From a virus (lineage: Duplodnaviria; Caudoviricetes), in the IMG/VR virus record IMGVR_UViG_3300035034_000127, positions 8,031-72,030 of that record: a stretch of DNA of 64,000 nt; one strand, given 5' to 3'. Of this stretch, positions 7,485 to 62,232 are shown piece by piece. The number at the start of each line of letters is the position of its first letter. The first letter of the stretch is position 1. The notes below the pieces were generated by a model. That model saw only the letters and a program-made list of their open reading frames with translations. It was not told where the DNA came from and made no database searches. The translations under genes and the position numbers were made by a program.

Positions 7485-8079
7485 TTTTCCTCCCTATCAA
7501 CATAAATCTTGTGTACAGTGGTGTTTCTAGTTCGTCGCGGTGTATAACTTCTATTTCCGAATGTTCTTCAAATTCTTGTAGTGTTGAGTGGCACCGAACG
7601 TGCTCTGCACAATCAAAATAGTTGTTACTCTGCAGAACAACAAGCGCATTCGTCGGAACTAAGCTTAACCACTGATCATATTGTACTTGTGTTAAGTGCT
7701 CACAAATAGTGTTAATTACTACGTCACCTCTATATATCTGCCGAGTTAAATCGCCAGTAATTGCTCGGAACCTTCCCTGCATCTCTTGTCTTTTATTTAC
7801 CGTGCAGGCTGTTTCCTCACAGTAAGGATCGATATCGTAAGAATGTATTTCTCTAATTTGCAGATTGCTATTAAATAAAATACTAGCAAGCACGCCGTTC
7901 CAGCCACCGTGAATGACATATTTCGATGCACTTGTAGGGGCATACCTAGTAAGTGCTTCTACTAACCATACTTTCGATCGTACTTGTCCCTTCCAAAAGC
8001 TCTCAAGAGTTCTGTATCTACTACTCGAGTTGCGCACCGCATCCATCCAAAATAATACGTCTTCGATTTCTACTTTCAT
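7477..8079 (-). CDS. Class I SAM-dependent methyltransferase
   Basis: Motif I-like VIHGGWNG, acidic YDIDP, and VVINTICEHL. Start moved to ATG 8079 (MKVEIEDVLFW), coupled to the upstream stop. Confidence 0.7.
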   Translation of the reverse strand: MKVEIEDVLFWMDAVRNSSSRYRTLESFWKGQVRSKVWLVEALTRYAPTSASKYVIHGGWNGVLASILFNSNLQIREIHSYDIDPYCEETACTVNKRQEMQGRFRAITGDLTRQIYRGDVVINTICEHLTQVQYDQWLSLVPTNALVVLQSNNYFDCAEHVRCHSTLQEFEEHSEIEVIHRDELETPLYTRFMLIGRKIV

Positions 8080-48740: not shown

Positions 48741-49037
48741 TTATAAACCCAACTCCTTCCTTAGATTAGCACCTTGAGGCAACAATATTTTAGTACCTGC
48801 AACAAAATCGTACACAGGGTCTTTTATGATATCCGGATTACGCTGAGCAAACACCCACCACAACTCTTTCTTGCCATAGAGATCGTATGCCAGTAGGTCT
48901 GGTCGGTAAGTGTATGCCGGAGTAATTACATATAATACATCGTCGCCAGCAACTGGTACAGGCCTAGGAGTAAATATGTCTAAATATCCTGCTGGATTAA
49001 TTTGTGTGTTACTGTATGGTCCAAAGTTTTTAGACAT
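48741..49037 (-). CDS. gp53: Baseplate wedge gp53-like (LysM-like) protein
   Basis: YRPDLLAYDLYG...LWWVFAQRN motif. Confidence 0.75.
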   Translation of the reverse strand: MSKNFGPYSNTQINPAGYLDIFTPRPVPVAGDDVLYVITPAYTYRPDLLAYDLYGKKELWWVFAQRNPDIIKDPVYDFVAGTKILLPQGANLRKELGL

Positions 49038-49954
49038 TATACAAATCCTTCTGGTCCAGATATATGAGTTCCGTTAATGTAGTCCTGAAAGCTGAACTTG
49101 GATTGACTACGTCTTGCATAGTTTGGAGCTAGAGTAACAGTGAATACACTTTGAGTAGGTACATAATCAATCTCTCCTGCTACATTGCACTCTATGTAGT
49201 CAACATCAGCTGGCATATCAGTAGTGAAGTTGGTTATTACTACTGGTATATTGTTTAGAACGTGCTTACCGTAGCCGTTAAGTCTTGCAATAGGTGGCGG
49301 ATTGCCTAATGATTCTGTACTGGCTCCAGAGAACATCTTAGTCATCGCTCGTAAATAGTGCAGGCATGCTATCCAATACCTCGCATCTTCTTGATTTTCA
49401 TTATAAAACTCGCCTGTTATAGTTATATTATCAACTTGACTATTTTCATACACATGATATGGATAATTTGAATGCACAGGATGCATGTTAGTATAATTTG
49501 CAGTATGACCCAGTAATATTGTAGGAGTAAAAGGAAAGATCATTCTATTACCGGTTCTTGATAATTCTGCAATAATTGATCCTTGCATTACAACATCAGG
49601 CACACTAAGGCTAACTCGCCAGTCAACTGTGTCGCTACCAGTTAGTGAATCATTTAATATTACTCTTGGCAGACTTTTTGGTTCAGGAGCTGCACCTGGG
49701 AAGATTCGCTGAGCTGCATTACCTACCATCCTAATAGCTTTGCCAACATCAGAGTTAGCTCCGCCCTGCCTGGCGATTATGTTGTCTACTATCCCAATAG
49801 AGTTCTTTACTATCTCCCCGGTCTCTGCTCGATCAGCAGAATTATCCGAATCTTTCGTTCTCCTAAAGAACGAAGTCTGGTTGGCTAGACCACCTGAGCT
49901 GCTTGCCGAGGCATCACCGCCTGAGTTACTATTAAAAGCGCTAAAAATTGACAT
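49037..49954 (-). CDS. Tail tube initiator / baseplate protein (gp48/gp54-like)
   Basis: FPFTPTI, ITITGEF, PPPIARLNGYG, PVVITNF...P.DVDY. Confidence 0.6.
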   Translation of the reverse strand: MSIFSAFNSNSGGDASASSSGGLANQTSFFRRTKDSDNSADRAETGEIVKNSIGIVDNIIARQGGANSDVGKAIRMVGNAAQRIFPGAAPEPKSLPRVILNDSLTGSDTVDWRVSLSVPDVVMQGSIIAELSRTGNRMIFPFTPTILLGHTANYTNMHPVHSNYPYHVYENSQVDNITITGEFYNENQEDARYWIACLHYLRAMTKMFSGASTESLGNPPPIARLNGYGKHVLNNIPVVITNFTTDMPADVDYIECNVAGEIDYVPTQSVFTVTLAPNYARRSQSKFSFQDYINGTHISGPEGFV

Positions 49955-49981
49955 AAGTTGTTGATCTCCAACAGTATTTAG

Positions 49982-50015
49982 TTGACAAAATTAAGTATGT
50001 AGTTTATAATAAATA
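49982..50015 (+). promoter_or_regulatory. Consensus sigma70 promoter for the late sigma gene, overlapped by a TAAATA core
   Basis: TTGACA 49982-49987, 17-nt spacer, TATAAT 50005-50010; TAAATA 50010-50015; RBS AAGGAG 50022-50027. A divergent TAAATA on the minus strand at 49980-49975 points at the tail operon. Confidence 0.85.
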
Positions 50016-50033: not shown

Positions 50034-51896
50034 TTGAGAAAACGCAATTACTTAAATAACAGAGATATCCTCAAAGAAATTCATAAATCTAAAAATACTT
50101 TCAATAGTTACGTTGAGCCTAGCTACAATCAATATGATATCATTCTCAAGAACGTGGATGATATACACTTATTGGAATCGTACATGGTTAACGACGAAGG
50201 CGAAACTGTCAAGATACTCGGAACTATAGCGCAAGCCAAAACTAACAAAGCAAAAAGACTGTCAACTGCTGAATATGAAAGAAGACGTATTGCTGGTGAA
50301 AAGGTTAAACAAGCGGAATGTGAAATTACTCCAGACGAAATCACTAAAGAAGAACTAATCTTCAGAGTCATGGATTTTGATCATATTCCTGAACAGCCGG
50401 GAAGAAAGAAAAATCCAAAAACAATAGCAGACACCAAGGTCAAGCTAAACTTTCCTCCTTTCAAGCATTACAAGTTTGAAGGAGATGATCTAGTATGTGT
50501 TGGAAAAAGTCATTGGAAAGGGGATTTGGAATCTGGACATTTTGACAGAGAACACGGCAAGGCCACAAATAATCTAGCTCTAATGTGGCTTAAATTAGTT
50601 GATAGATACGCTACTCGTGGGAATGTTAGAGGTTATTGTGTTGATATAAACACCGAAGCACTAACCGATCGTGGTTGGATGAGTATAAACGAAATTAGCG
50701 AAAATGATCAAATTTTATCATATACTGACGGCAATTTGAAATGGTCAAAAATTAAATCAATATACCGAGGTGACTATAACGGGTTAATGCACAAAATGAC
50801 TCTTCAAGGGTTTGACTCACTAGTAACGCCGGGGCACAAGTTTGTTACAGAACGGGGACTAGTTAAGGCCGAGCACCTTAAAGAAACTGACAAATTGGTA
50901 TTACTAGGTAATGCAGTAGTTGACATTACCCCTGCTGTATATACAGATGAATTTGTTGAATTAATTGGATGGATTGTAACCGAAGGATGTTATCAAAAAG
51001 GCAGAAACAACAAATTTGGATGCATTAGTGTCTATCAAAATAAAGGAATTTATGCTGATCGTATGAGAGACTGTTTAACAAAATTAAATTATAAATTTTC
51101 TGAAAATAAAGAAAAAAATATATGCTTTAGAATTTCTGCAGAATCTAGTAGAAACGTTGAATCTATCTTTAAAGAAAAAAACCTTAATATGAAATTTATA
51201 ATGTCATTGACATCAAATCAGCGGCAATTATTAATTGAGACAATGATTGACGGTGACGGATGGAGGACTAATGGGTATAAAAGATATTGTCAAAAAGATC
51301 CTGCTCACGTAAACCTATTCCAGGCAGTGTGTGCTATTTCTGGCATAAGAAGTAATTCTCATCTAGTAGATGGTGTGTCATTTGGGAAGCCTGTTACTTA
51401 CTATAACATAAACTTGTTTACCGAAAAGAAAAATACAACTAGAGTAGAATGTGTAAATTTTCACGGTGGGAAGAATAACGGCAGAAACAGAACAACTGGA
51501 CGCGGTAAAGAGTCACATCCTAACTATCCAACAACGCAGTATAACGGGAAAGTATGGTGCCCGGAAACTGAATATGGTAGTTTTGTAGCCAGAAGAAGTG
51601 GTGGGGTATTTTTAACCGGAAACACCTACAACGATGAAATGAAAGGCCAGGCGATACTACAACTAGCGCAAATAGGATTACAATTTGACGAATCCAAGTC
51701 AGACAATCCTTTCGCATATTATACGGCGGCTGTAACCAATTCGTTTGTGCGAGTGATAAATATTGAGAAGCGCAATCAAAACATACGTGACGATATACTT
51801 GAAATGAATGACTTAAATCCGTCACACACGCGAATAAATAACGGCAAGTGGGAAGCAGAGGTTAAACGCAATGAGTCTAACTCAGAAAACAATTGA
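50034..51896 (+). CDS. gp55: Late-transcription sigma factor (T4 gp55-like) containing an intein
   Basis: NYLNNRDIL N-terminus; the exteins join as RYATRGNVRGY|TYNDEMKGQAILQL...QFDESKSDNPFAYYT, the gp55 signature; upstream of gp47/gp46 as in T4. Confidence 0.85.
   Translation: MRKRNYLNNRDILKEIHKSKNTFNSYVEPSYNQYDIILKNVDDIHLLESYMVNDEGETVKILGTIAQAKTNKAKRLSTAEYERRRIAGEKVKQAECEITPDEITKEELIFRVMDFDHIPEQPGRKKNPKTIADTKVKLNFPPFKHYKFEGDDLVCVGKSHWKGDLESGHFDREHGKATNNLALMWLKLVDRYATRGNVRGYCVDINTEALTDRGWMSINEISENDQILSYTDGNLKWSKIKSIYRGDYNGLMHKMTLQGFDSLVTPGHKFVTERGLVKAEHLKETDKLVLLGNAVVDITPAVYTDEFVELIGWIVTEGCYQKGRNNKFGCISVYQNKGIYADRMRDCLTKLNYKFSENKEKNICFRISAESSRNVESIFKEKNLNMKFIMSLTSNQRQLLIETMIDGDGWRTNGYKRYCQKDPAHVNLFQAVCAISGIRSNSHLVDGVSFGKPVTYYNINLFTEKKNTTRVECVNFHGGKNNGRNRTTGRGKESHPNYPTTQYNGKVWCPETEYGSFVARRSGGVFLTGNTYNDEMKGQAILQLAQIGLQFDESKSDNPFAYYTAAVTNSFVRVINIEKRNQNIRDDILEMNDLNPSHTRINNGKWEAEVKRNESNSENN
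50637..51623 (+). mobile_element. Intein (329 aa) with LAGLIDADG homing endonuclease, in gp55
   Basis: Starts CVDINTEALT; block B VTPGHKF; LAGLIDADG-like ELIGWIVTEG and LIETMIDGDG; ends VWCP...FVARR...FLTGN followed by Thr(+1). Confidence 0.9.
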
Positions 51897-53616
51897 TAGC
51901 TTTCTAAATAAAAAAAGACTAACTTTTGCTTTGCTGGCAGCGTCTTGTTTAAAAGACAGCGCCGTCAGCGTGTCTTTGGCTATTAATTCTAAAAACGCAA
52001 GACAGGTATTACATCACATAGAAACAGGATCTACTATTGTACCCCAATGTCCTTGTGGTACTGCGTTAGCTTGGCATCCCGACAAATACTGCTATCGAAC
52101 GTATTGTTCAAACGCATGTACAGCCACATACACTGTTAAGGAAAAGAAAAAAAAGAACCTAGAATTACTGGGAGTAGAATGGCATTCACAAAGTGCGGAT
52201 TGGGCTAACAAGGTTAAAAAGACTAGTTTAGAAAAGTTCGGAGTAGACCATTACAGTAAAACTAATAGTTTCAATCAGGCAGTCAAAACCACTAACCTAA
52301 AAAATTACGGAGTAGAACACCCGGCGCAGAGCTTTGAAATTAAAGAAAAGATGATTGCAACTTGGAAAAAGAATCACGGCGTAACTAATCCAATGCAGCT
52401 ATTAAGCGTTCGACAAAAAGTTGCAGAAACAACATTTGATCGGCTAGGTGTACACAACGCATTCAGTTGTTTATTGGTACAACAGCAAATCAAGCAAACT
52501 AATCTAGATAGATACGGCGTAGAAAATCCTATGCAATGTGTAGATACTCAATCAAAGGTTGTTGCAACACGTAAAAAAAACTATTATACAACTGACACGC
52601 TAGATAAACTTCATTCGCCGGCCTGGTTATTTAAAGAACACGTTAGTGGAAAGACAATTACAGAAATTGCCAGCAACATTGGCGTAAGTTCCAGCAACTT
52701 AGCAAAGTATTTTCAAAAATACAATATTGACGTGATTCGGCATCGACAAACATACGCTGAAAAAAAGATGTTATCATTTTTTAATCACTATAATGTGAAA
52801 GTAATACCTAACAATCGAAGTATTATATCTCCGAAAGAACTAGACTTCTTTTTGCCCGAACATAATTTAGCAATTGAGATAAACGGAGTATACTGGCATA
52901 CTGAACAGTTTAACAAACACTCACAGTATCATCTTAATAAAACTCAGGAGTGTGCGCAATTGGGTATTGAATTATGGCAATTCTGGGATTACGAAATAGA
53001 ACAGTTATGGGAATTGATCACTCAGAAACTGCTATCCAGAATGCAAATACAACAAAAAAAGACAGGTGCTAGAAAACTAAAAGTAGTTAATGTAGGTAAA
53101 GAACAAAAAAGTGCGTTCTTTGCTGAATCTCACCTACAAGGAGACTGCGGTAGTTCTATAAACCTAGGACTAGTAGATCAACACCAAACATTGGTTATGT
53201 GTGCTAGTTTCAGTAAATCACGATTTTCAAAAAAACACAAATGGGAGCTAATAAGATTAGCCACAAAGAAAGGTAACCTTGTCGTCGGTGGGGCTAGCAA
53301 ATTAATAGCTCGTTTCTCGAAAGATTATATGAAACACAACGAGAACCTAGTAAGTTATTGCAATCGTAGGTTTTCTAGAGGTAACGTTTACCAAAAACTA
53401 GGATTTACCTGCATTTCATCCAATACACCAGGGTATGTATATGCAAAAGGCAATAGAATTATAGGCAGTCGACAGCAATGGCAAAAACATAAGCTGGCAG
53501 CTAGGCTGGCGGTTTTTGATTCGAGACTCACCGAAGTTGAAAATATGGCAGCAAGTTCCTGTTATAGGCTATGGGATTGCGGGCAAGATACTTGGGTACT
53601 AACTAAACTCCATTGA
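51871..53616 (+). CDS. Free-standing putative homing endonuclease (PD-(D/E)XK, Hef/Vsr-like) with Zn finger and about 23-aa repeats
   Basis: CPCG...YCSNAC; six K.T....YGV..P.Q-like repeats; HTH-like TITEIASNIGVS; nuclease ELDFFLPEHNLAIEINGVYWH; C-terminal HLQG...WELIRLA...GGASKL...WDCG domain. Confidence 0.75.
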   Translation: MSLTQKTIDSFLNKKRLTFALLAASCLKDSAVSVSLAINSKNARQVLHHIETGSTIVPQCPCGTALAWHPDKYCYRTYCSNACTATYTVKEKKKKNLELLGVEWHSQSADWANKVKKTSLEKFGVDHYSKTNSFNQAVKTTNLKNYGVEHPAQSFEIKEKMIATWKKNHGVTNPMQLLSVRQKVAETTFDRLGVHNAFSCLLVQQQIKQTNLDRYGVENPMQCVDTQSKVVATRKKNYYTTDTLDKLHSPAWLFKEHVSGKTITEIASNIGVSSSNLAKYFQKYNIDVIRHRQTYAEKKMLSFFNHYNVKVIPNNRSIISPKELDFFLPEHNLAIEINGVYWHTEQFNKHSQYHLNKTQECAQLGIELWQFWDYEIEQLWELITQKLLSRMQIQQKKTGARKLKVVNVGKEQKSAFFAESHLQGDCGSSINLGLVDQHQTLVMCASFSKSRFSKKHKWELIRLATKKGNLVVGGASKLIARFSKDYMKHNENLVSYCNRRFSRGNVYQKLGFTCISSNTPGYVYAKGNRIIGSRQQWQKHKLAARLAVFDSRLTEVENMAASSCYRLWDCGQDTWVLTKLH

Positions 53617-53664: not shown

Positions 53665-54672
53665 ATGTTTAATAAAGCAGCAGTTTTTACCGACATTCAC
53701 TTTGGTCTCAAAGGAAATAGTCGGGTACACAATCAAGATTGTGAAGATTTTGTTGACTGGTACATCGAAACCGCAAAATCCAACGGGTGTGAAACTGGAA
53801 TCTTTTGCGGAGACTGGCATCACAACCGAAATTCCCTAAACCTAACTACAATGGACGCGACAATACGCAGTTTAGAGAAACTAGGAGCAGCATTTGACAA
53901 CTTCTACTTGTTTGTAGGTAACCATGACTTGTATTATAAGGATAAAAGAGATGTAACGTCAATGAGTTTTGGACGGCACATTCCCGGCGTCACATTTGTT
54001 GACTCAATTCTAGAAAAAGATGATGTTGCTCTCATTCCGTGGCTAATAGGAGACGAATGGAAAAAAATTCAAAAGATCAAAGCCAAGTATATGTTTGGTC
54101 ACTTTGAGTTACCGCACTTTTACATGAATGCCATGGTACAGATGCCAGACCACGGTGAGCTTAAAGCTGAAAACTTTAAGAACCAGGAATATGTGTTCTC
54201 AGGTCACTTTCATAAAAGACAACAGCAAGGAAAGATACACTATATTGGTAATGCGTTTCCACATAACTACGCCGATGCCTGGGATGATAAACGAGGCATG
54301 ATGATATTAGAGAAAAACGGAGAACCAGAATTTATCGATTGGCCTGAATGTCCCAAATACCGAACAGTTAATCTTTCACAGCTGATCGATGAAGCGGATA
54401 CGTTAATTAAGAGTAAAATGTACCTTAGGGTAACGTTAGACCTTCCTATCAGCTACGAAGAAGCAAGTTTTATCAAGGAAACTTTCATTAATCAATACGG
54501 ATGTAGAGAAATTACATTGATTTCTCAAAAACAGATAGACGAATTGTCTACAGACTTAGATATTCAAGCATTCGAGAGTGTAGACCAAATTGTTGCTAAA
54601 GAAATTACCGAACTAGACACTAACAACTACGATAAGAAAATGTTATTAGATATTTACAACGGATTAGAATAA
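53665..54672 (+). CDS. gp47: Recombination nuclease subunit, Mre11/SbcD-like
   Basis: Metallophosphoesterase motifs DIHFG, GDWHH, GNHD, GHF, SGHFH. Confidence 0.92.
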   Translation: MFNKAAVFTDIHFGLKGNSRVHNQDCEDFVDWYIETAKSNGCETGIFCGDWHHNRNSLNLTTMDATIRSLEKLGAAFDNFYLFVGNHDLYYKDKRDVTSMSFGRHIPGVTFVDSILEKDDVALIPWLIGDEWKKIQKIKAKYMFGHFELPHFYMNAMVQMPDHGELKAENFKNQEYVFSGHFHKRQQQGKIHYIGNAFPHNYADAWDDKRGMMILEKNGEPEFIDWPECPKYRTVNLSQLIDEADTLIKSKMYLRVTLDLPISYEEASFIKETFINQYGCREITLISQKQIDELSTDLDIQAFESVDQIVAKEITELDTNNYDKKMLLDIYNGLE

Positions 54673-54673
54673 T

Positions 54674-56455
54674 ATGATACAGATACAGGATTTAACGGTT
54701 CGCAACTTTATGTCGGTTGGAAACTGTGCTCAAGCTATAGACTTTAGTAAAGAGCAACTAACACTGGTGCTTGGTGAGAACCTAGATCAGGGCGGGGGTG
54801 GTGACGGGAATCGAAACGCCACAGGGAAATCAACTATTATTAACGCGCTTAGCTATGCTCTTTATGGCCAAGCGCTGACTAACATCAAGAAAAATAATCT
54901 AATTAACAAGACCAACAGTAAAAATATGTTGGTCACTCTTCATTTTAAGAAGAGCAACGTGGACTATAGAATAGAAAGAGGACGAAGCCCCAACATTCTT
55001 AAGTTTTATGTGGATGATGCAGAACAAGACATGACTGATGAGTCACAAGGTGATAGTCGCAGAACACAGGACACGATTAACGACCTATTGGGTATGAGCC
55101 ACGATATGTTTAAACACATTGTTGCTCTTAATACCTATACTGAGCCGTTCCTGTCAATGAGAGCCAACGATCAACGTGCTATCATTGAGCAATTACTAGG
55201 TATTACTATACTAACTGAAAAAGCAGTGGCATTAAAAGAACAAGTACGAGTGTCTAAAGACTCTATAACCGAAGAGACACTAAAGATAGACGCAATTAAA
55301 ACAGCAAACGGCAAAATTGAGCAAAGTATAGCTACCTTGGTCAGCAGACAACGTGCATGGCAATCAAAGAAGAAGCAAGACAGTATAAAACTACAACAAG
55401 GTATTGACCAATTAGAAAAACTTGATATTGAGCTAGAACTTAGCGATCACGAAAAGTTGCAGCATTGGACTCAAATGAATACTGCTGTTACTGCTCTTAA
55501 TAAAGAGAAAAGTACACTAGATACTGCGTTAATGAGAGCAGATACTGCTGTGAGCAAGGTAAAAAAGAACATTGTTGAACTAGATGATGCTACCTGTTAC
55601 ACATGCGGTCAAGAATTACACGCAGACAAAAGGGATGAAATACAAAAGTCCAAAGAAAAAGAACTAGCTGATGCCACTGCTTATCAAAAAGAAGTAGTAG
55701 ACAAGCTAAAGAAGGTAATGGCCAATCTGTCTGAGATCGGCGAGCTGAATGGTAAGCCTATCACATTCTACGACAGTGCAAAAGAAGCATACGAACACCG
55801 CAGCAACGTTGAGAACCTAAAAAACACGTTAACTGCAAAACAGAACGACGAAGATCCGTATGAAGCACAAGTATCTGATCTAAAGACGTCAGCTCTGCAA
55901 GAAATTAACTGGATTACAGTAAATGAAATAACCAATCTAAAAGAACATCAAGAGTTTCTTCTCAAACTGCTAACAAATAAGGATAGCTTCATACGCAAAA
56001 AGATTATAGATCAGAATCTTGCCTATTTAAACAACAGGCTTACTAATTATCTAGACAGATTAGGTTTACCTCACCAAGTTGAGTTTCAAAACGACTTATC
56101 AGTTGAGATCTCTCAATTAGGGCAGGACCTTGACTTTGATAACTTGTCACGAGGCGAACGAAACAGGCTTATACTAGGTCTTAGCTTTGCTTTCCGCGAC
56201 GTTTGGGAGAGTTTGTATCAGAACGTTAACCTGCTGTTCATCGACGAGCTGATAGACAGCGGCATGGACACAGCAGGAGTTGAGAGTTCGTTAAGCGTAC
56301 TCAAGAAGATGGCAAGAGAACGAGAGAAAAATATCTTTTTGATTAGTCATAAAGATGAATTGATAGGGCGAGTCAATCATGTGCTTAAAGTTATTAAAGA
56401 AGGCGGATTCACCTCTTATGCGAACGATTTAGATGTAGTGGAGTCAACTCAATGA
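54674..56455 (+). CDS. gp46: Recombination ATPase subunit, Rad50/SbcC-like
   Basis: RNFMS, Walker A NATGKS, coiled coil with zinc hook CYTC, signature LSRGE, Walker B LLFIDE, ISH. Confidence 0.92.
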   Translation: MIQIQDLTVRNFMSVGNCAQAIDFSKEQLTLVLGENLDQGGGGDGNRNATGKSTIINALSYALYGQALTNIKKNNLINKTNSKNMLVTLHFKKSNVDYRIERGRSPNILKFYVDDAEQDMTDESQGDSRRTQDTINDLLGMSHDMFKHIVALNTYTEPFLSMRANDQRAIIEQLLGITILTEKAVALKEQVRVSKDSITEETLKIDAIKTANGKIEQSIATLVSRQRAWQSKKKQDSIKLQQGIDQLEKLDIELELSDHEKLQHWTQMNTAVTALNKEKSTLDTALMRADTAVSKVKKNIVELDDATCYTCGQELHADKRDEIQKSKEKELADATAYQKEVVDKLKKVMANLSEIGELNGKPITFYDSAKEAYEHRSNVENLKNTLTAKQNDEDPYEAQVSDLKTSALQEINWITVNEITNLKEHQEFLLKLLTNKDSFIRKKIIDQNLAYLNNRLTNYLDRLGLPHQVEFQNDLSVEISQLGQDLDFDNLSRGERNRLILGLSFAFRDVWESLYQNVNLLFIDELIDSGMDTAGVESSLSVLKKMAREREKNIFLISHKDELIGRVNHVLKVIKEGGFTSYANDLDVVESTQ

Positions 56456-56709
56456 CCGACGACGAAAGATTTGAAAAAGAAAAAGAATTAGACCCCGATG
56501 ATAGTCTTCACCAACAGTTGGTCCAGGCGTATCTAGACTATTTTGTTTCAATGGAACATTGGGAAGCTATGAAAACTCACCGTAGGTACTACGTTCTACA
56601 ACAGAGGCTTCGTAAAATAAAAAAAATTACGCATCAACGAAACGCAGAAGTGAAAGCACAGTTTCAAGAGGTATATCCAGAAGTTTTTAAGTCAAAACCG
56701 AAGCAGTGA
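56452..56709 (+). CDS. Hypothetical protein
   Basis: 85 aa, ATGA-coupled to gp46, GGAG RBS. Confidence 0.7.
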   Translation: MTDDERFEKEKELDPDDSLHQQLVQAYLDYFVSMEHWEAMKTHRRYYVLQQRLRKIKKITHQRNAEVKAQFQEVYPEVFKSKPKQ

Positions 56710-56735
56710 GGTGCTGTAGGTAGATATATAACTGT

Positions 56736-57170
56736 ATGCATTGGACCTATGAAGGCGTAACTATTATTGAGATACCAGACGAGTATGAAGGATTTGTGTA
56801 TCTCATTACCAATCTACAGTCCGGAAAAAAATATATTGGCAAGAAGCTGGCTAAGTTTAAAACTACCAAGCCACCGCTTAAAGGTAAAAAGAATAAACGC
56901 AGAGGCTTTAAAGAAAGCGACTGGAGAACCTATTGGGGTTCGTCAGATAAGTTAAATGCTGATGTAGCAGCTTTAGGACAGGAGCAATTTACTCGAGAAG
57001 TACTTTATTTTTGTAAATCAAGAGCAGAAATGTCCTACATTGAGGCAAAAGAACAATTTGATCGCAAGGTACTTGAAACTGATGACTACTACAACGGTAT
57101 TATCAATGTTCGAGTAGGCGGATCAGAGAAATTAAGACAGTCACTAATAGAAAACAAAAATTTAAAATAG
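56736..57170 (+). CDS. Small single-domain GIY-YIG nuclease (Seg/endonuclease II-like)
   Basis: GFVYLITN...KKYIGKK, YWGSS, F.REVL, conserved Glu (YIEAKEQ) and YYN; 144 aa with no separate DNA-binding extension. Confidence 0.8.
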   Translation: MHWTYEGVTIIEIPDEYEGFVYLITNLQSGKKYIGKKLAKFKTTKPPLKGKKNKRRGFKESDWRTYWGSSDKLNADVAALGQEQFTREVLYFCKSRAEMSYIEAKEQFDRKVLETDDYYNGIINVRVGGSEKLRQSLIENKNLK

Positions 57171-57195
57171 GCAAGACAGGCATCTTCAGGCAAAG

Positions 57196-57635
57196 ATTAT
57201 TTCTTAGTTGTTGCGAACAAAGCAAGAAGTAATACACACTTAGGCATCAAAACAACACACAAGGCTGGCAGGCCGGACTATAATACTGCTGTGAAACAGC
57301 CGGTTGGTACCCGGACACGAAACATGTTGAGACACTCCCCTTCGAGAGACATCGTCGTAGCTGAAAAGGCAAGCGAGTTAAGTATTGACATAGAACGTTT
57401 GTTGGCGTTCAAGAAAAAATCGCACACTCCTAAAAACTGTACATCTAGGAACGAAAGTACAGGCGGCATGTTAAAATGCTATATCGACGTAGGTTGGGAA
57501 AGGTCAGAACCCGTGGAGTGAACAAATACCTGCTTCCAATGTGTCTTGGCTGGAAATACTCACATGAAGTATATTCATTAAGCAGACGGAACCTTTAAAC
57601 AGGTTCCGTCTGACCAGAGCAATCTACATGAATCA
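57196..57635 (+). ncRNA. Candidate large structured non-coding RNA (family not recognised; boundaries and strand approximate)
   Basis: Only long intergenic region of the window; many complementary segments, including a 12-bp perfect hairpin (57583-57612), a pseudoknot (57428-57462) and long-range pairings (see findings). Confidence 0.6.
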
Positions 57636-57745
57636 TTCAAAACAAAAGAAAAACAATTGCTTAAATCACTTATACAAACAAATTACCAAATTCTTTTTAC
57701 TATATTCACTTAAGAAACTATTAGTTTGAGCGTAGAGCGAAAACT

Positions 57746-57766
57746 AAATGAGCAAAGCTCATTTTT
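57746..57766 (+). terminator. Hairpin, possible intrinsic terminator
   Basis: AAATGAGC-AAA-GCTCATTT followed by TT; preceded by the TAGTTT/AAACTA hairpin at 57722-57746. The stem is AT-rich, so the call is weak. Confidence 0.45.
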
Positions 57767-57768
57767 AG

Positions 57769-57776
57769 TATAAATA
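57769..57776 (+). promoter_or_regulatory. T4-type late promoter TATAAATA
   Basis: Exact T4 gp55 consensus about 30 nt upstream of ATG 57806. Confidence 0.75.
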
Positions 57777-57805
57777 CATCTATATACACTTGGAATAACT
57801 CTCAT

Positions 57806-58474
57806 ATGAAGATGCACGAAATTAATGAAACACCTCTTGATGAGCTGGATGGTGACGGCGTAGGTAGGTCTCTGGGAAAGGCAGCTAAGTCTGTTGGCAA
57901 GGGCATTGCTGATTTTGGTAAAGGATTTAAAGCAGGCTTTACTGGAAAGAGTAGACGTGCCACGCCATCTAATAGAACCGCTGCATCATCTAATAGAAGT
58001 GGTGCAACGCCTCGTCGACGCACAAGGCCAACTCCTGCTGGCACTCCACCACCTGAGACTACTCCAACTCCTACTGGCACTCCACCTGCCAATTCCAGGA
58101 ATGCTACTCAAACTGATACCTTTGCAAAAGCAAAATCAGATATTAGAAAAGTACAGGGCGGGCAAAAACCTATGCCTCATAACACTGCTGTTGTAATTAA
58201 CCGCGCACTAACACAGTTATCTAAAGGCAGCAAAGAGCATGGGGTATGGGCAGCAGAGAAAATTTTAAGATTCGCTAGCGCAGGAGTAAACGTTACTAGA
58301 CAACAGCAACAGTGGATAGCAAACGCTAAAGCAGGGGAACGATTCCTGACGCAGAGCAGATATCTTGAATTATCAAGAATGTTACGCGAGCATGGAATTA
58401 GGTGGATTGACTTAGGATTAAGGATCCACCTGGTTGAAAGCACTAATAAACTAGTTGGGATCAGTCGAGTTTAG
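57806..58474 (+). CDS. Hypothetical basic protein, possible internal head protein
   Basis: Late promoter; N-terminus MKMHEINETPLDE with I/L-x-E motifs; Arg- and Pro/Thr-rich linker. Confidence 0.6.
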   Translation: MKMHEINETPLDELDGDGVGRSLGKAAKSVGKGIADFGKGFKAGFTGKSRRATPSNRTAASSNRSGATPRRRTRPTPAGTPPPETTPTPTGTPPANSRNATQTDTFAKAKSDIRKVQGGQKPMPHNTAVVINRALTQLSKGSKEHGVWAAEKILRFASAGVNVTRQQQQWIANAKAGERFLTQSRYLELSRMLREHGIRWIDLGLRIHLVESTNKLVGISRV

Positions 58475-58683
58475 AAAAATGGAAGCCCAGTTTTTTTTGT
58501 GGTTTCCATGTTATGTTCAACAATGTCTCCTATAAGAAGCTTATCTTCGTAAGTTAGATAATAAGCTTCCTCATAGGTCACTCCACCTCTCATATACCAA
58601 CACATCTTTAGCAGCTCGGATTTTATTTCTTTTTGATCATTTTCATACTTGGTTACTTCTTCAAGGATCTGACCTGTACTCAT
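58471..58683 (-). CDS. Small baseplate hub / tail assembly chaperone partner (gp51-like position)
   Basis: 70 aa, CWYMRGGVTYEEAY.LT.ED; in the -1 frame of the upstream gene and reachable through a slippery site. Confidence 0.6.
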   Translation of the reverse strand: MSTGQILEEVTKYENDQKEIKSELLKMCWYMRGGVTYEEAYYLTYEDKLLIGDIVEHNMETTKKTGLPFF

Positions 58684-58694
58684 TGGTAAGATCC

Positions 58695-59567
58695 TTATCC
58701 GAAAAAATTTGATTGATCAAATGTGATTGGCACTGTCCATGTTGCTGGTGCACCTTTTTTAATATCTTCAGGTGAGGATACAACGTTAATTGGTTCGATC
58801 TCAAACTTTTCTTTTTGTGCATCTAGGTGTTCAGTTACTTTATTATAAAAATCTTTGTCAGCATTAGCAATAAACTCATCAATATGTTCTTGATTATCAA
58901 CTAGTGTATTATCATCAATTGATATTGATGAGATACATTTACTAATAGTTTTTACTGTTAGATTGGTTAACTTTGTAAAACTTTCATTGAACTTAGTTAG
59001 TTTTTCTTCTTCTGGAATATTTTCATTGTTTACTAATACAAAAATTCGCTGTTCTTCAAATGTTATAAGACTTGCTTCAGTAAACTCTTTATAAGTTAGT
59101 GGGCGCATCTTAATTTTCATATTGTCAATTTGAAGATTTGGTTCGTAACTTACAGTAACTAACTTATTAAGTAGTTGTCGTAGGTCGACTGAGAAAGTTC
59201 TCTCTTCTCCTGACTTAGGAACTTTTACCTCAAGATCCATCATTGCCCCGTAGGTAGCAATTCGAATTGCTATTAGGACAGCGTCTAGGTCAATGCTTGG
59301 CATAGCCCAAGGATTTTTGATTGCAGGAATACAACTTTGGATTAGATTCACTGTTGCTTGGCCGTTTAGCAATGCGTCTGGAGTTTTCATTGTGAGTTCG
59401 TCTTTTGCTGTCATTGCAAAAACAGGAAACTCACCGCTTTCAGGAATCTCTAAGGTACCAGGAGCATAAAAATGTCCTAGACTAGGAAGAGTAATGTAAA
59501 CTTTAGGTTGTCTAAAGTATTTCTTTAATGGGTTTTCGTTGTGATTAATTGTGTTTGGATCTACCAT
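58695..59567 (-). CDS. gp26: Baseplate hub assembly protein, gp26-like
   Basis: YITLPS.G, MTAKDEL..KTPDALLNG, IDLDAVLIAIRIATYG, I.MRPLTY, C-terminal FDQSNFF; GGAGG RBS. Confidence 0.7.
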   Translation of the reverse strand: MVDPNTINHNENPLKKYFRQPKVYITLPSLGHFYAPGTLEIPESGEFPVFAMTAKDELTMKTPDALLNGQATVNLIQSCIPAIKNPWAMPSIDLDAVLIAIRIATYGAMMDLEVKVPKSGEERTFSVDLRQLLNKLVTVSYEPNLQIDNMKIKMRPLTYKEFTEASLITFEEQRIFVLVNNENIPEEEKLTKFNESFTKLTNLTVKTISKCISSISIDDNTLVDNQEHIDEFIANADKDFYNKVTEHLDAQKEKFEIEPINVVSSPEDIKKGAPATWTVPITFDQSNFFG

Positions 59568-59578
59568 GAATGCCTCCG

Positions 59579-59614
59579 CATAAATACAGTACTAATATGT
59601 ATCATATATTTATG
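59579..59614. promoter_or_regulatory. Face-to-face late-promoter cores
   Basis: CATAAATA on + (59579-59586, towards the tape measure gene) and on - (59614-59607, towards gp26); an 8-bp inverted repeat. Confidence 0.6.
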
Positions 59615-59640
59615 TGCGTATATAATTTGGACTTTTAATT

Positions 59641-62232
59641 GTGGCAGATGAAGTAGAGATTGGTAATGTAGGTGGCGAGAATGGTGTTGCTAGCGAAGCA
59701 ACGCTAGCATCTCTGTTGCGTGCAATGGAACGAATGGCCGGCGCAGATGGCTCTAATGCAAGTGAAGCTGCAAGGGCCGCTAGACGCTTGCGACAAGCAC
59801 TGCGGGATGCTGCCGATAGTACAGAAGATAATACAGATGCACTAGATGAAAACACTGGGGCGATTGAAAGTGCTGCTGAAGTCACTGGTAGATTTGCCAG
59901 AGCGATAGTAGACGTTACTGCAAATCTTGTAGGTGTACTTGCATCTAGCATTGTTGGATTTGGTAGCGTGTTATTATCCTCTAAAACAGAACTGTCAGAC
60001 TTTGCTGAGCAGATTCCGTTTGTGGGAGGAATCTTAGGTTCACTTGTCGGAATACTCGATGACAGCATTGCTACGTTTAGACAACTATCGTCAGTAGGTG
60101 CTGCTTTTAGCAATAGCATCGAGAATATGAGACTGTCGGCAGCTCAACTAGAATTAGGATTAGATGAAATGGCCAGTTTCGTGTCATCTAATTCAGAATC
60201 GTTGCGTTTGCTTAGTGGAACAGTAACAGATGGTATTACTAGATTTAAGGCTATCAACAAAACAATAAAAGACACAGGTGACTTTGCTGCTCTAAAAAAC
60301 CTAGGGTTTACAGTTGAAGAAATAAATGAAGGACTGGCTGATTTTACCGCCCTACAGTCTAGGCTAGGACGTCTACAACGCATGAGTACTAGTCAGATTG
60401 CCGCAGGCAGCGCTAGATATCTTGAGCAATTGGACAGGTTGGCAAAGGTCACAGGACAGAGTAGAAAAGAACTAGCAGCAACAATGCTGCAACAAAGTCA
60501 GGATGCTAGTTTTCGGGCACTAGCTAACCAATTTACTAACAGCTCAAAACAGCTAGAAAACTTTACTAGTAGTATGGCATTGATAGATACACTGCCAGAA
60601 AACGTGGCTAACGGGCTCAGAGACCTAGCAGACGGGATACCTCAGACTGCTGACGGTATTGCACTATTAACGACCATTGGTCCAGAAATACAAACAGCAA
60701 TGAAAAGGATAGCAAGTGGTGCTGATCCTCAAGTGTTGATTAATGCAATCGGCGCAGCAGGCCACGATATTGAAAATTTTATAGGCGGCTCTGCAAAGGA
60801 GCAAGCTGCAATTATAGCCCAACTTAGACAAACTCAACCAGAAATTGCAGCAGTACTAGATGCTGCTACTAAAATGAAAGAGTTTGGTACTAAAGAAATG
60901 AGTGCAGCTCGTGCTGAACAAGCAAAGAGAGCTGAAACTACTGCTTCATTAACTGAATTTGATGATACATTAAAAGCTTTTAGAGGAACTATTGCAAAGG
61001 CGTTTATTGATAGTGGCATATTTGAAAAGATGGCCGGCGGTGTTGCTACGGTTGCAGACTTATTAGAAAATACACTTGCATCTGATGAGTTTGAAACTAG
61101 TTTAAAAAATATATCTTCTACAATTAAGAACTTCCTGAATGAGATACAAGAGGTAGGAATTGAAGAAGCGTTTGCTGGTTTGTTTAAAGAGGGCGGCCCG
61201 TTTGCAGGACTAGGAAAATCTATAAGTGATACTATAGTATCAGCATTGAAAGAAACGCTGCCTATGATAGGTATTGGGTTAGTAGCTTTATTTAGTGGTG
61301 TATACCTAGCTAAAAAAATAAGCGGAGCATTTACTGGACTACTGGGTAGAGTTTTTGGCGGAGGCGGCCCTGACCTAGGAGGCGGAGGCGGGGATGACGA
61401 CCCGGATCGAGGACGTCGAGGCGGACGTCGAGGCGGACGTCGAGGCGGCGCAGATGGAGGCGGCAGAGCTGGCAGAAATATAGGAGGCTTCTTTGGCGGC
61501 ATTATAGGCAGTGTGATGAAAGGTGCAGCCCAAGGCATTAAAGCGTTTGCTAACCCAGCTGTACTTCTAGGTGCAGTTAATATTGGATTAGTTATTACTG
61601 CAATAGGAGCAGGAGTAGCTGGCGCCGCTTGGATAACCGGAAAGGCGCTTCCTACATTTGTTGAAGGAATAAAATCCTTTGAAGATATAAACGGCGAAAA
61701 GCTAAAAACAGCCGGCGCCGGTATGTTGTCTGTGTCGGCTGGCCTTGCAGCGTTTGGCGGAGCTTCGATTATAGCAGGTGTTGGTAATATTGCTGGCTTT
61801 GTCGGCGATTTATTTGGCGGTTCAGCACTTGAGAATATGCAAGAAACTGCCAAAGGTATGCAGTCAATTGCAGATGTTAAAGGATTAAAATCTAACTTAG
61901 AGGTCCTTAATCGAGGGCTTGATACAGACTCTATAAAAAACTATGCTGATGCAATGGAACGTTTAGTAGAAGCTCTTAGTGAAATGAACGACGAATTATC
62001 CAAGGACAACAAAGTAGGCTTTGGAAAAGGAACTAACGCCGGTGACGTGTTAAGTAAGGTCAACACTTCCACGTCTGGAGGCACCGAAGGTATCAAAGAG
62101 TTAAATAACTTGATGCAACAAGTGTTAATGACCTTACAAAGAATGCAAGTTGACACAAACAAGACAGAAAAAAATACAAAAAATCTAGGCGGCGGAAATA
62201 TTGCCAACGGATACATAAGTTCTATCCGCTAA
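59641..62232 (+). CDS. Tape-measure-like protein
   Basis: 863 aa, Ala/Gly-rich helical, ASEATL N-terminus, YLEQLDRLAKVTGQSR, hydrophobic segments; lies between gp26-like and portal genes. GTG start. Confidence 0.65.
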   Translation: MADEVEIGNVGGENGVASEATLASLLRAMERMAGADGSNASEAARAARRLRQALRDAADSTEDNTDALDENTGAIESAAEVTGRFARAIVDVTANLVGVLASSIVGFGSVLLSSKTELSDFAEQIPFVGGILGSLVGILDDSIATFRQLSSVGAAFSNSIENMRLSAAQLELGLDEMASFVSSNSESLRLLSGTVTDGITRFKAINKTIKDTGDFAALKNLGFTVEEINEGLADFTALQSRLGRLQRMSTSQIAAGSARYLEQLDRLAKVTGQSRKELAATMLQQSQDASFRALANQFTNSSKQLENFTSSMALIDTLPENVANGLRDLADGIPQTADGIALLTTIGPEIQTAMKRIASGADPQVLINAIGAAGHDIENFIGGSAKEQAAIIAQLRQTQPEIAAVLDAATKMKEFGTKEMSAARAEQAKRAETTASLTEFDDTLKAFRGTIAKAFIDSGIFEKMAGGVATVADLLENTLASDEFETSLKNISSTIKNFLNEIQEVGIEEAFAGLFKEGGPFAGLGKSISDTIVSALKETLPMIGIGLVALFSGVYLAKKISGAFTGLLGRVFGGGGPDLGGGGGDDDPDRGRRGGRRGGRRGGADGGGRAGRNIGGFFGGIIGSVMKGAAQGIKAFANPAVLLGAVNIGLVITAIGAGVAGAAWITGKALPTFVEGIKSFEDINGEKLKTAGAGMLSVSAGLAAFGGASIIAGVGNIAGFVGDLFGGSALENMQETAKGMQSIADVKGLKSNLEVLNRGLDTDSIKNYADAMERLVEALSEMNDELSKDNKVGFGKGTNAGDVLSKVNTSTSGGTEGIKELNNLMQQVLMTLQRMQVDTNKTEKNTKNLGGGNIANGYISSIR
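61411..61446 (+). repeat. Perfect tandem repeat, 3 x GGACGTCGAGGC (encodes GRRG x3)
   Basis: Read directly at 61411-61422, 61423-61434 and 61435-61446. Confidence 0.95.

Follow-up and report, generated by a model that had tools for sequence, protein, structure and literature searches.

A structured RNA beside a single-domain GIY-YIG nuclease gene in putative marine T4-like phages: two separable neighbors, the RNA probably not being the guide of the enzyme

We analyzed a 64,000-nucleotide (nt) stretch of viral DNA, hereafter the window, in which the gene of a small GIY-YIG nuclease is followed, on the same strand, by a structured RNA. The window is a portion (positions 8,031 to 72,030) of the 72-kb IMG/VR virus record IMGVR_UViG_3300035034_000127, which is fragmentary (CheckV 20%). 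A blastn comparison with 50,697 phage records gave only four matches, all of them to Methylophilales phage Melnitz, at 69% DNA identity and within part of the GIY-YIG gene; on the basis of these matches, we take the source phage to be an uncultured marine T4-like myovirus. The locus lies in a run of co-oriented + strand genes, which consists of an Mre11-type phosphoesterase, a Rad50-type ATPase, an 85-amino-acid (aa) open reading frame (ORF), the 144-aa ORF of the nuclease, 635 bases lacking a credible gene and a 222-aa ORF. A previous annotation made from the letters alone (the sequence-only reading) had proposed that the nuclease and the RNA may form an RNA-guided system, or that the RNA may be processed from the gp47-gp46-GIY-YIG transcript. 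This reading was confirmed in part: the observation was largely right and co-transcription is plausible, whereas the interpretation as an RNA-guided nuclease was unsupported. The elements of the locus are as follows; its relatives are cited by locus number (L003 and so on).

56736–57170, + strand: gene of the single-domain GIY-YIG nuclease, 144 aa (Pfam PF19835, E 4.1e-34; phrog_447, E 1.8e-36)
57171–57250, + strand: spacer, shared only with the closest relative (L003), which alone aligns here
57251–57479, + strand: 5' domain of the structured RNA, which begins with the motif CAACACAYAAGG and holds several covarying helices and variable hairpins (from alignments)
57480–57634, + strand: 3' domain of the structured RNA (covariance model R1, 139.8 bits, E 4.8e-27; pair counts from 91 distinct sequences)
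57562–57568, + strand: repeat X1 (ACATGAA), on the 5' side of the terminal hairpin, equal to X2 in 69 of 72 loci, with nine variants
57583–57612, + strand: terminal hairpin of 12 base pairs (bp), its helix 98.7% paired and three of its pairs changed on both sides
57626–57632, + strand: repeat X2 (ACATGAA), on the 3' side of the hairpin, where the conserved region ends

The conserved core of the RNA occupies positions 57251–57634 of the + strand, that is, about 385 nt. Its 5' edge lies at approximately 57251–57263, 81–92 nt past the stop codon of the GIY-YIG gene, rather than within about 25 nt of it as previously described; in L006, L009 and L010, no gap separates the core from the stop codon, and the TAA falls inside the conserved CAACACATAAGG motif at the 5' end. 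The 3' limit of approximately 57634 agrees with the previous value of 57640. Single-sequence folding yielded z values of –2.0 for the + strand and –2.6 for the – strand; such thermodynamic folding is weak evidence, and the case for an RNA rests on covariation. In an alignment of 11 sequences, 33 pairs were predicted, 12 of them with compensatory changes. For the 3' domain, 97.9% of the pair cells among 91 distinct sequences were standard pairs; the observed level of covariation was reached in none of 500 shuffles, and slid controls fell to 27–42% paired. The covariation in both alignments confirms that the structured element exists. The 3' domain, for which we built R1 with 158 positions, comprises two nested helices, a possible pseudoknot and the terminal hairpin. 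The pseudoknot GGUCA (57504–57508)/UGACC (57611–57615) is kept as a candidate only: it is 99.8% paired, with no pair changed on both sides. In the 5' domain, RNAalifold analysis of 71 distinct full-length sequences supported well-covarying helices, among them one with pair counts of CG:35/UA:30, CG:50/GC:15/UG:5 and UA:40/CG:20, and a further helix with GC:52/AU:12, CG:54/UG:10 and GC:51/AU:14.

The 3' domain contains frequent G-U pairs (GU:64/GC:22, UG:57/CG:23, GC:72/GU:17 and AU:69/GU:16). Read on the opposite strand, these would turn into A-C mismatches, so the + strand is the folded one. These results demonstrate that the RNA is real and that it is encoded on the strand of the GIY-YIG gene. 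A protein-coding role for the region was also considered and rejected, as the short ORFs in it are not kept, indels among the relatives have lengths not divisible by three, and an in-frame stop interrupts the conserved ATGTCGACGTAG block in the frame concerned.

We then compared the RNA with the available databases. No Rfam 15 family, group I introns included, matched positions 55000–60000 of the window at E ≤ 1, nor did any match 10 loci of types B, C (described below) and others at E ≤ 0.1; ARAGORN detected no tRNA or tmRNA in the region, and blastn with type A, B and C sequences found the RNA in none of the 50,697 phage records. Full-text literature searches limited to chosen terms returned no published description, which leaves absence from print unproven. 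The RNA thus belongs to a family outside the Rfam catalogue. More than 594 relatives of the protein were present in IMG/VR, and 80 loci were kept from them, with the intergenic stretch alignable in a subset; R1 matched 13 of these 80 as well as the window. A 22–26-nt pattern derived from the 3' domain recovered at least 120 further IMG/VR stretches, and all of the 100 that were tested with R1 matched it (50–166 bits). Within the 72-kb record, R1 finds the 3' domain in one copy, and blastn of the intergenic region against the record returned only the region itself and its own hairpin on the opposite strand. The pattern also occurred 33 times in bacterial genome contigs, where two were true RNA matches, both on contigs of one marine metagenome-assembled genome (MAG) and both set in this phage gene order; the 33 yielded no cellular homologue. 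The two contigs, L237 (PBPT01000016.1, 335 kb) and L239 (PBPT01000082.1, 153 kb), belong to a MAG labelled Candidatus Neomarinimicrobiota, carry gp46, the small ORF, the GIY-YIG gene and the RNA in the order of the window, and have identical RNA scores. Mis-binning of phage DNA or a chimeric assembly could account for them, or they may hint at the host.

Type A is only one of the RNA types found behind the GIY-YIG gene. At least 450 nt free of long ORFs follow the gene in 44 of the 61 loci having at least 1 kb of downstream sequence, and type A accounts for some of these only. For type B (L012, L016, L017, L024, L026, L031, L034 and L035), 47 pairs were predicted from eight sequences, with compensatory changes in 16, and a third type, type C, is visible in the alignment of L027, L049, L070 and others. 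At least two further sequence types share the locus and the 3' architecture with type A, and may share its core fold. In L022, L028, L037 and others, a reverse-strand ORF and a terminator follow the gene instead. One stretch, L034:3740–4270, is a hybrid whose first ~165 nt match the type A 5' domain and whose remainder is type B, and the RNA types may accordingly exchange modules by recombination. At 70–130 nt past the RNA core, the window (57700–57765), L006, L009, L010, L014, L019, L021 and L082 share a AGTTTGAGCG..GCGAAAACT block that is conserved and is accompanied by another small hairpin; at the same place, L054, L061, L050 and types B and C carry GAATGAAATGA-like repeats instead.

Turning to the protein, PF19835 (SegE_GIY-YIG) covers residues 3–123 of the 144 aa, and no other Pfam domain was detected at E ≤ 0.01; since there is no second domain, the protein appears to consist of the GIY-YIG catalytic domain only. 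In an AlphaFold2 model built from the alignment of relatives (pLDDT 91.5), the C-terminal end is a single helix (131–143), with no linker and no C-terminal DNA-binding domain. The sequence-only reading was thus right to describe a minimal nuclease that lacks such a module. Among 28 aligned IMG/VR relatives, the mean column identity is 76%, and F20-V21-Y22, Y33-I34-G35, R55/R56, E103 and N120/N124, which we take by analogy to have catalytic roles, are invariant. Structural comparison placed the model closest to the I-TevI catalytic domain (Z 8.3, root-mean-square deviation 2.6, 82 residues aligned), followed by the GIY-YIG restriction enzyme PD-T4-3, which acts on 5-hydroxymethylcytosine (Z 7.3), the UvrC N-domain (Z 5.6) and T4 EndoII (Z 5.2). 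Foldseek agreed weakly, with I-TevI in its top two rows (probabilities 0.95 and 0.87, E 0.17 and 0.33). TIGR01453 (group I intron endonuclease) matched at E 7e-4, under its cut-off, and a sequence search of solved structures gave a chance-level row only (E 0.41). Both the motifs and the modelled alpha/beta fold place the protein in the GIY-YIG superfamily, and the PHROG label of phrog_447, 'NAD synthetase', looks like a propagated misnomer.

The basic insert to which attention had been drawn, KFKTTKPPLKGKKNKRRG, is indeed present at residues 40–57 and is modelled as a beta-hairpin (strands E40–45/E55–60), but it does not set this protein apart, being near-invariant in the 28 relatives, where P47, L48, K49, G50, K52, R55 and R56 are all invariant. 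Homologues were detected by tblastn in 841 phage records, mostly of cyanophages and at <60% identity. The basic hairpin is a trait of the family.

We next examined whether the gene and the RNA are tied to each other. For this purpose, 80 loci found with the pattern were taken with 2.5-kb flanks; six were short of upstream DNA, and 74 were scored. The GIY-YIG gene was located just upstream of the RNA, on the same strand, in 72 of the 74, two of the 72 being cut by the contig end. In the other two (L110 and L144), gp46 and the small ORF are followed by an unrelated nuclease of 170–184 aa in the GIY-YIG slot and then by the complete RNA. The L110 ORF (1514–2026, + strand) matches PF24608 'phage putative PDDEXK endonuclease' (E 4.5e-24) and phrog_244 'RusA-like resolvase'; the profile scan covers this ORF only, and the L144 ORF is assigned to PD-(D/E)XK by the resemblance of its translation to that of L110. 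A GIY-YIG homologue was not found in the 17 kb (L110) and 12 kb (L144) of contig searched. The slot in these two loci has the appearance of a non-homologous displacement of one small nuclease by another.

Conversely, the gene can be present where the RNA is missing. Melnitz is the nearest cultured phage, and in the complete Melnitz-3 genome a gene of 68% identity is followed by ordinary ORFs, with no long gap and no match to R1, the model of the 3' domain; ORFs also directly follow the GIY-YIG homologue in cyanophages P-HM1 and P-SSM2. At the level of sequence, gene and RNA prove separable in both directions. The co-occurrence that the sequence-only reading wished to see examined therefore holds for the 72 adjacent pairs and breaks at L110, L144 and Melnitz-3, an obligate partnership is not supported, and the occurrence of the RNA without the gene is the outcome that had been named beforehand as refuting the proposal.

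Nor is the spacing fixed. In L003 (1380–2012, – strand; same contig as L155), the gene of a 210-aa GIY-YIG-type homing endonuclease (phrog_314, E 2.5e-16) lies between the nuclease gene and the RNA, and the RNA is 94% identical to that of the window despite this intervening gene; in L034, a 102-aa ORF separates the two. Three kinds of nuclease are therefore found at the 5' edge of the RNA, namely the resident GIY-YIG enzyme, its PD-(D/E)XK replacement and the inserted homing endonuclease, and this edge looks like a landing site for selfish nuclease genes. A variable guide beside a conserved scaffold had also been named as something to look for. We found no guide-like variable segment at an RNA end next to mobile-element boundaries; the sole variable short segment of the RNA is the duplicated 7-mer (X1 and X2), and the locus is syntenic across relatives and not mobile. 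Because the RNA is found in the absence of the enzyme gene, and vice versa, it is probably not the guide of the GIY-YIG enzyme.

By contrast, the remark that no evident terminator or strong promoter lies between gene and RNA was borne out, as a sequence scan from the stop codon to 57545 found no promoter-like or terminator-like site. Because of this, and because the stop codon falls inside the RNA motif in relatives, it is plausible that the RNA is made as the 3' part of the gp47-gp46-GIY-YIG transcript, and, as had also been proposed, it may be processed from this transcript.

These observations can be accommodated by two separable things lying side by side, a stand-alone nuclease gene and a structured RNA gene, an explanation that we consider to be slightly on the probable side. 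The conserved GIY-YIG gene would fill a 'small nuclease' slot that ends the gp47-gp46 (Mre11/Rad50-type) recombination run, and the structured non-coding RNA of ~385 nt (57251–57634) would follow directly on the same strand. The RNA would most likely be made as the tail of an early/middle transcript that carries the nuclease gene, be released by processing and act in trans, working alone as a folded RNA and as neither a guide nor an obligate subunit of the GIY-YIG protein. The neighborhood would then reflect a shared operon position and a place where several kinds of nuclease settle beside a highly conserved RNA gene.

The following points weigh against this explanation. Within the phage group, gene and RNA are nearly always neighbors, although the figure of 72/74 largely reflects shared ancestry, as the loci come from related phages, and decides neither way alone. 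The replacement of the GIY-YIG gene is again a small nuclease, which could hint that the RNA is functionally tied to 'a nuclease' and that more than position links them. Finally, the identity of the two 7-nt repeats has no explanation under it.

This identity, and not a helix, is the strongest covariation of the 3' domain. The column pairs that rank highest by mutual information are separated by 88 columns, and their two letters agree in 96–98% of sequences; in the window, they correspond to the ACATGAA copies at 57562–57568 and 57626–57632, on either side of the hairpin at 57583–57612, which has a 12-bp stem and a loop of 6–7 nt. In 69 of 72 loci, one 7-mer exactly matches the other, and the pair changes in step through nine variants (ACATGAA, ACATAAT, ACATGAT, GCATGAA, GCATAAA, ACGTGAA, GTATGAA, ACAGGAA and ACATGAG), while the bases immediately outside do not obey the identity rule. 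Types B and C share the layout of repeat, U-rich linker, long hairpin, linker and repeat, with 7-mers such as GGGTAAT, AGGTAAT, TCGTGAT, TCTTGAT, ACATGAT, ATATGAT, TCATGAT, ACTTGAT and AGATAAT, and the repeat consensus across all types is NNN-T-R-A-W. A strict scan for this layout (stem of at least 9 bp and exact repeat of at least 7 nt) detected it in 28 of 69 loci, compared with 8 of 207 shuffled controls.

We searched for a complementary partner of the repeats. No consistent reverse-complement 6-mer was present within ±700 nt, and exact complementary 7-mers within ±2.5 kb numbered seven, compared with approximately 15 expected by chance. In the 5' domain, no column sets the ACATAAT class apart, and those columns that do distinguish other classes point to no consistent complementary partner; in the lineage with the GCA variant, CACACGCAAC replaces CACACGTAAC in the 5' domain, a single event that is too weak to use. 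Several other candidates were tried and rejected. A helix between the two repeats (CAUG..CAUG in RNAalifold) shows no changes on both sides, and 10–13 sequences are unpaired at three of its pairs. Pairing of the repeat with the start of the downstream gene is not enriched (own class 7/46, other classes 3–26/46), and a third similar copy at the next start codon (57801–57811) is within chance (3 matches compared with 0.81 expected, a level reached by 5 of 100 shuffles). A translational bypass with gene-60-like take-off and landing sites fails because the median open length of the frame that ends at X1 is 15 codons (minimum 2), compared with 15 and 17 codons for the other two frames. The 5' motif CAACACATAAGG, considered as a third repeat, does not covary with X1/X2.

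Because the limits of the 7 nt are sharp, we infer that both copies are read functionally by one partner, rather than being kept alike by gene conversion, and our working guess is that a single trans-acting partner reads X1 and X2 alike. One specific version, which we regard as a long shot, is that the 7-mers (NNN-U-R-A-W) constitute a programmable specificity element, in which a single trans-acting nucleic acid would base-pair with both copies, or else the small nuclease made from the shared transcript would cut both and so free the hairpin unit. If this were true, the RNA would be a new kind of phage RNA device, with a short sequence written twice and evolving in step, and in the nuclease version the term 'nuclease-RNA system' would be right in another form, with the RNA as substrate or partner of whichever nuclease occupies the slot.

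The likeliest rival, though rather unlikely in our judgment, is a cis-acting 3' untranslated region (UTR) element, in which case the RNA would stay on the nuclease/recombination mRNA and control its stability, how its 3' end is processed, or how much is made of a nuclease that might be self-harmful. The abutment or overlap of the RNA with the stop codon in relatives and the lack of a terminator or promoter between the two are consistent with such a role, as is the retention of the RNA where another nuclease gene replaces GIY-YIG. However, ~385 nt with many covarying helices go far beyond the needs of known stabilizing hairpins, the RNA of L003 is conserved even behind a reverse-oriented gene, and Melnitz and the cyanophages have the homologous gene without the RNA.

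It is also conceivable, but unlikely, that the locus is a replication or recombination element acting on its own DNA, where the transcript would form a persistent hybrid or primer similar to ColE1 RNA II or to a T4 ori-type R-loop. Its position at the end of the gp47-gp46 run, adjoining structure-capable nucleases, and the A+T-rich stretch after the RNA would suit this role. On the other hand, we identified no feature of an RNA-DNA hybrid site, and the many compensatory changes argue for a fold kept as RNA; the cumulative GC skew turns at ~49–50 kb and not at 57.5 kb, which is a weak objection, as the turn may simply follow gene direction.

Comparison with known GIY-YIG enzymes bears on the remaining rivals. 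The window protein has the same catalytic fold, motifs and phage setting as homing endonucleases of the I-TevI and T4 SegE type, and in L003 a true homing-endonuclease gene has landed at the very same spot. The window protein differs from the Seg/I-TevI type in having neither the linker nor the C-terminal DNA-binding domain, and its gene is not sporadic, given its presence in 72 of 74 loci and its 76% mean column identity; moreover, no intron accompanies it, as Rfam finds no group I intron. A compact nuclease gene beside a large structured RNA on the same strand is the arrangement of IscB/omegaRNA and TnpB/reRNA (OMEGA). However, OMEGA nucleases are of the RuvC/HNH and not the GIY-YIG kind, and the window has neither transposon ends nor an end-located guide; the OMEGA trait of constant linkage between RNA and gene within a mobile element is contradicted by L110, L144 and Melnitz-3 and by the synteny of the locus.

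Another parallel is SsnA, described by Chenal et al. 2025 (PMC11893778) as a single-domain GIY-YIG enzyme of 94 aa. Its substrate is single-stranded DNA, in which it binds a hairpin together with the oriented flanks and makes its cut immediately 5' of the hairpin. According to the same paper, SsnA recognizes the NTS hairpin repeats flanking its own gene, 71% of ssnA homologues have such a hairpin motif beside the gene, and the enzyme does not act on RNA (PMC11893778). Like the Ssn genes with their NTS/SRM hairpins as portrayed there (PMC11893778), the window gene is a single-domain GIY-YIG gene beside a strong hairpin with oriented non-palindromic flanks. The terminal hairpin and its flanks might thus be a site, read as single-stranded DNA or as RNA, that the adjacent nuclease recognizes, which we regard as quite doubtful. 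In support of such a role, one strong hairpin with conserved oriented flanks follows the gene, as with ssnA (PMC11893778), and some type C hairpins begin with ATTC and end with GAAT like dRS3/NTS, which is a resemblance only. However, the window enzyme matches PF19835 (SegE type), so that its subfamily, as judged by Pfam, would differ from the family named for Ssn (cd10448), and its hairpin is single rather than present in many dispersed copies (the 3' domain being single-copy in the 72-kb record, itself a fragment) and is embedded in a 385-nt covarying fold. In addition, L110 and L144 retain the hairpin module even though another nuclease gene takes the place of the GIY-YIG gene and no GIY-YIG homologue was found in the contig parts searched.

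SsnA shows that a minimal GIY-YIG enzyme can be site-specific without an RNA guide (PMC11893778). The view of the RNA as a scaffold and guide that gives the minimal GIY-YIG protein its target specificity is very improbable: the missing DNA-binding domain, the near-constant adjacency and a 7-mer (NNN-U-R-A-W) that varies between lineages on a conserved scaffold are in its favor, but RNA without gene and gene without RNA both occur, the spacing is variable, a syntenic non-mobile locus has no transposon end to supply a guide, and the basic beta-hairpin is kept also in homologues without an adjoining RNA (841 phage records match, most at <60% identity).

GOLLD and ROOL are, like the window RNA, large many-helix phage-borne non-coding RNAs of unknown function that were found by comparative genomics (in part after PMC12286853). 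Both are in Rfam, and the window RNA, which has no Rfam match, differs in being smaller (~385 nt), in occurring in marine T4-like phages and in its fixed place after recombination genes; GOLLD and ROOL are nearest in kind, though unrelated as judged by Rfam. The settlement of nucleases beside an RNA gene also has a precedent: T4 segB, a free-standing GIY-YIG gene, sits in a tRNA gene cluster beside highly conserved RNA genes, which offer conserved cleavage sites (PMC2330249). The window differs in that its RNA is not a tRNA (ARAGORN) and its resident nuclease lacks the DNA-binding part of the Seg enzymes.

The genes and signals surrounding the nuclease gene and the RNA are the following.

53665–54672, + strand: gp47-like (Mre11-type) phosphoesterase gene, the start of the run (ORF; Pfam Metallophos, E 7.2e-5)
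54674–56455, + strand: gp46-like (Rad50-type) ATPase gene (Pfam AAA_23, E 3.7e-10; SMC_N; Rad50 zinc hook)
56452–56709, + strand: 85-aa ORF between gp46 and the nuclease gene, its position kept in relatives
57746–57764, strand not assigned: small terminator-like hairpin lying in the A+T-rich tail (flagged by the scan on the – strand; a TTTTT run comes after the same stem on the + strand)
57769–57776, + strand: TATAAATA, a late-promoter-like box read from the sequence, 30 nt upstream of the next gene
57806–58474, + strand: variable downstream gene (ORF, 222 aa), outside the RNA, where relatives have different genes

The name gp47 for the first of these is inferred from synteny with the neighboring gp46-like gene. 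Just upstream of it, a 581-aa ORF (51871–53616, + strand) carries DUF7487 repeats (E 1.5e-25) and a weak match to DUF559, a Vsr-like endonuclease domain (E 6.7e-4, just below the Pfam cut-off), and may be a further nuclease-type gene of the neighborhood. In L019 (70–2706, + strand), the ORF upstream of the small ORF and the GIY-YIG gene encodes 878 aa rather than the usual ~590; its start resembles an intein, and an intein may therefore be present in this gp46 homologue. The 85-aa ORF had no above-threshold match in Pfam or PHROG, and homologous small ORFs occupy the same position in L003, L006, L009, L010, L014, L021, L082 and L237.

Downstream of the RNA, TATAAATA at 57769–57776 fits the T4 late-promoter consensus. 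The 222-aa ORF was without a match in Pfam and PHROG searches, and beyond it a baseplate-hub-like gene (phrog_150) follows on the opposite strand. The first + strand genes past the RNA in the window, L006, L009, L014, L021, L082, L110, L144 and L237 encode 142–303 aa of divergent sequence with a common N-terminus of the form MK(I/M)(N/H)(E/D)(I/V)..E, which resembles the capsid-targeting leader of T4 internal proteins at their hypervariable locus. Over the whole window, the cumulative GC skew and AT skew both switch sign at ~49000–50000.

The practical outcome is negative, in that the IscB/TnpB guide-RNA analogy does not hold at this locus. For the biology of these phages, an RNA of ~385 nt with many helices, carried by at least 100 contigs of putative uncultured marine T4-like phages and lying outside Rfam, represents a new class among the few large structured phage RNAs. 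Its fixed place behind Mre11/Rad50-type genes and the three kinds of nuclease at its 5' edge provide concrete handles for experiments. The 7-nt repeats, which mutate in step without a visible complementary partner, represent a covariation that ordinary RNA-structure tools overlook, and they may point to a new mechanism of recognition or copying.

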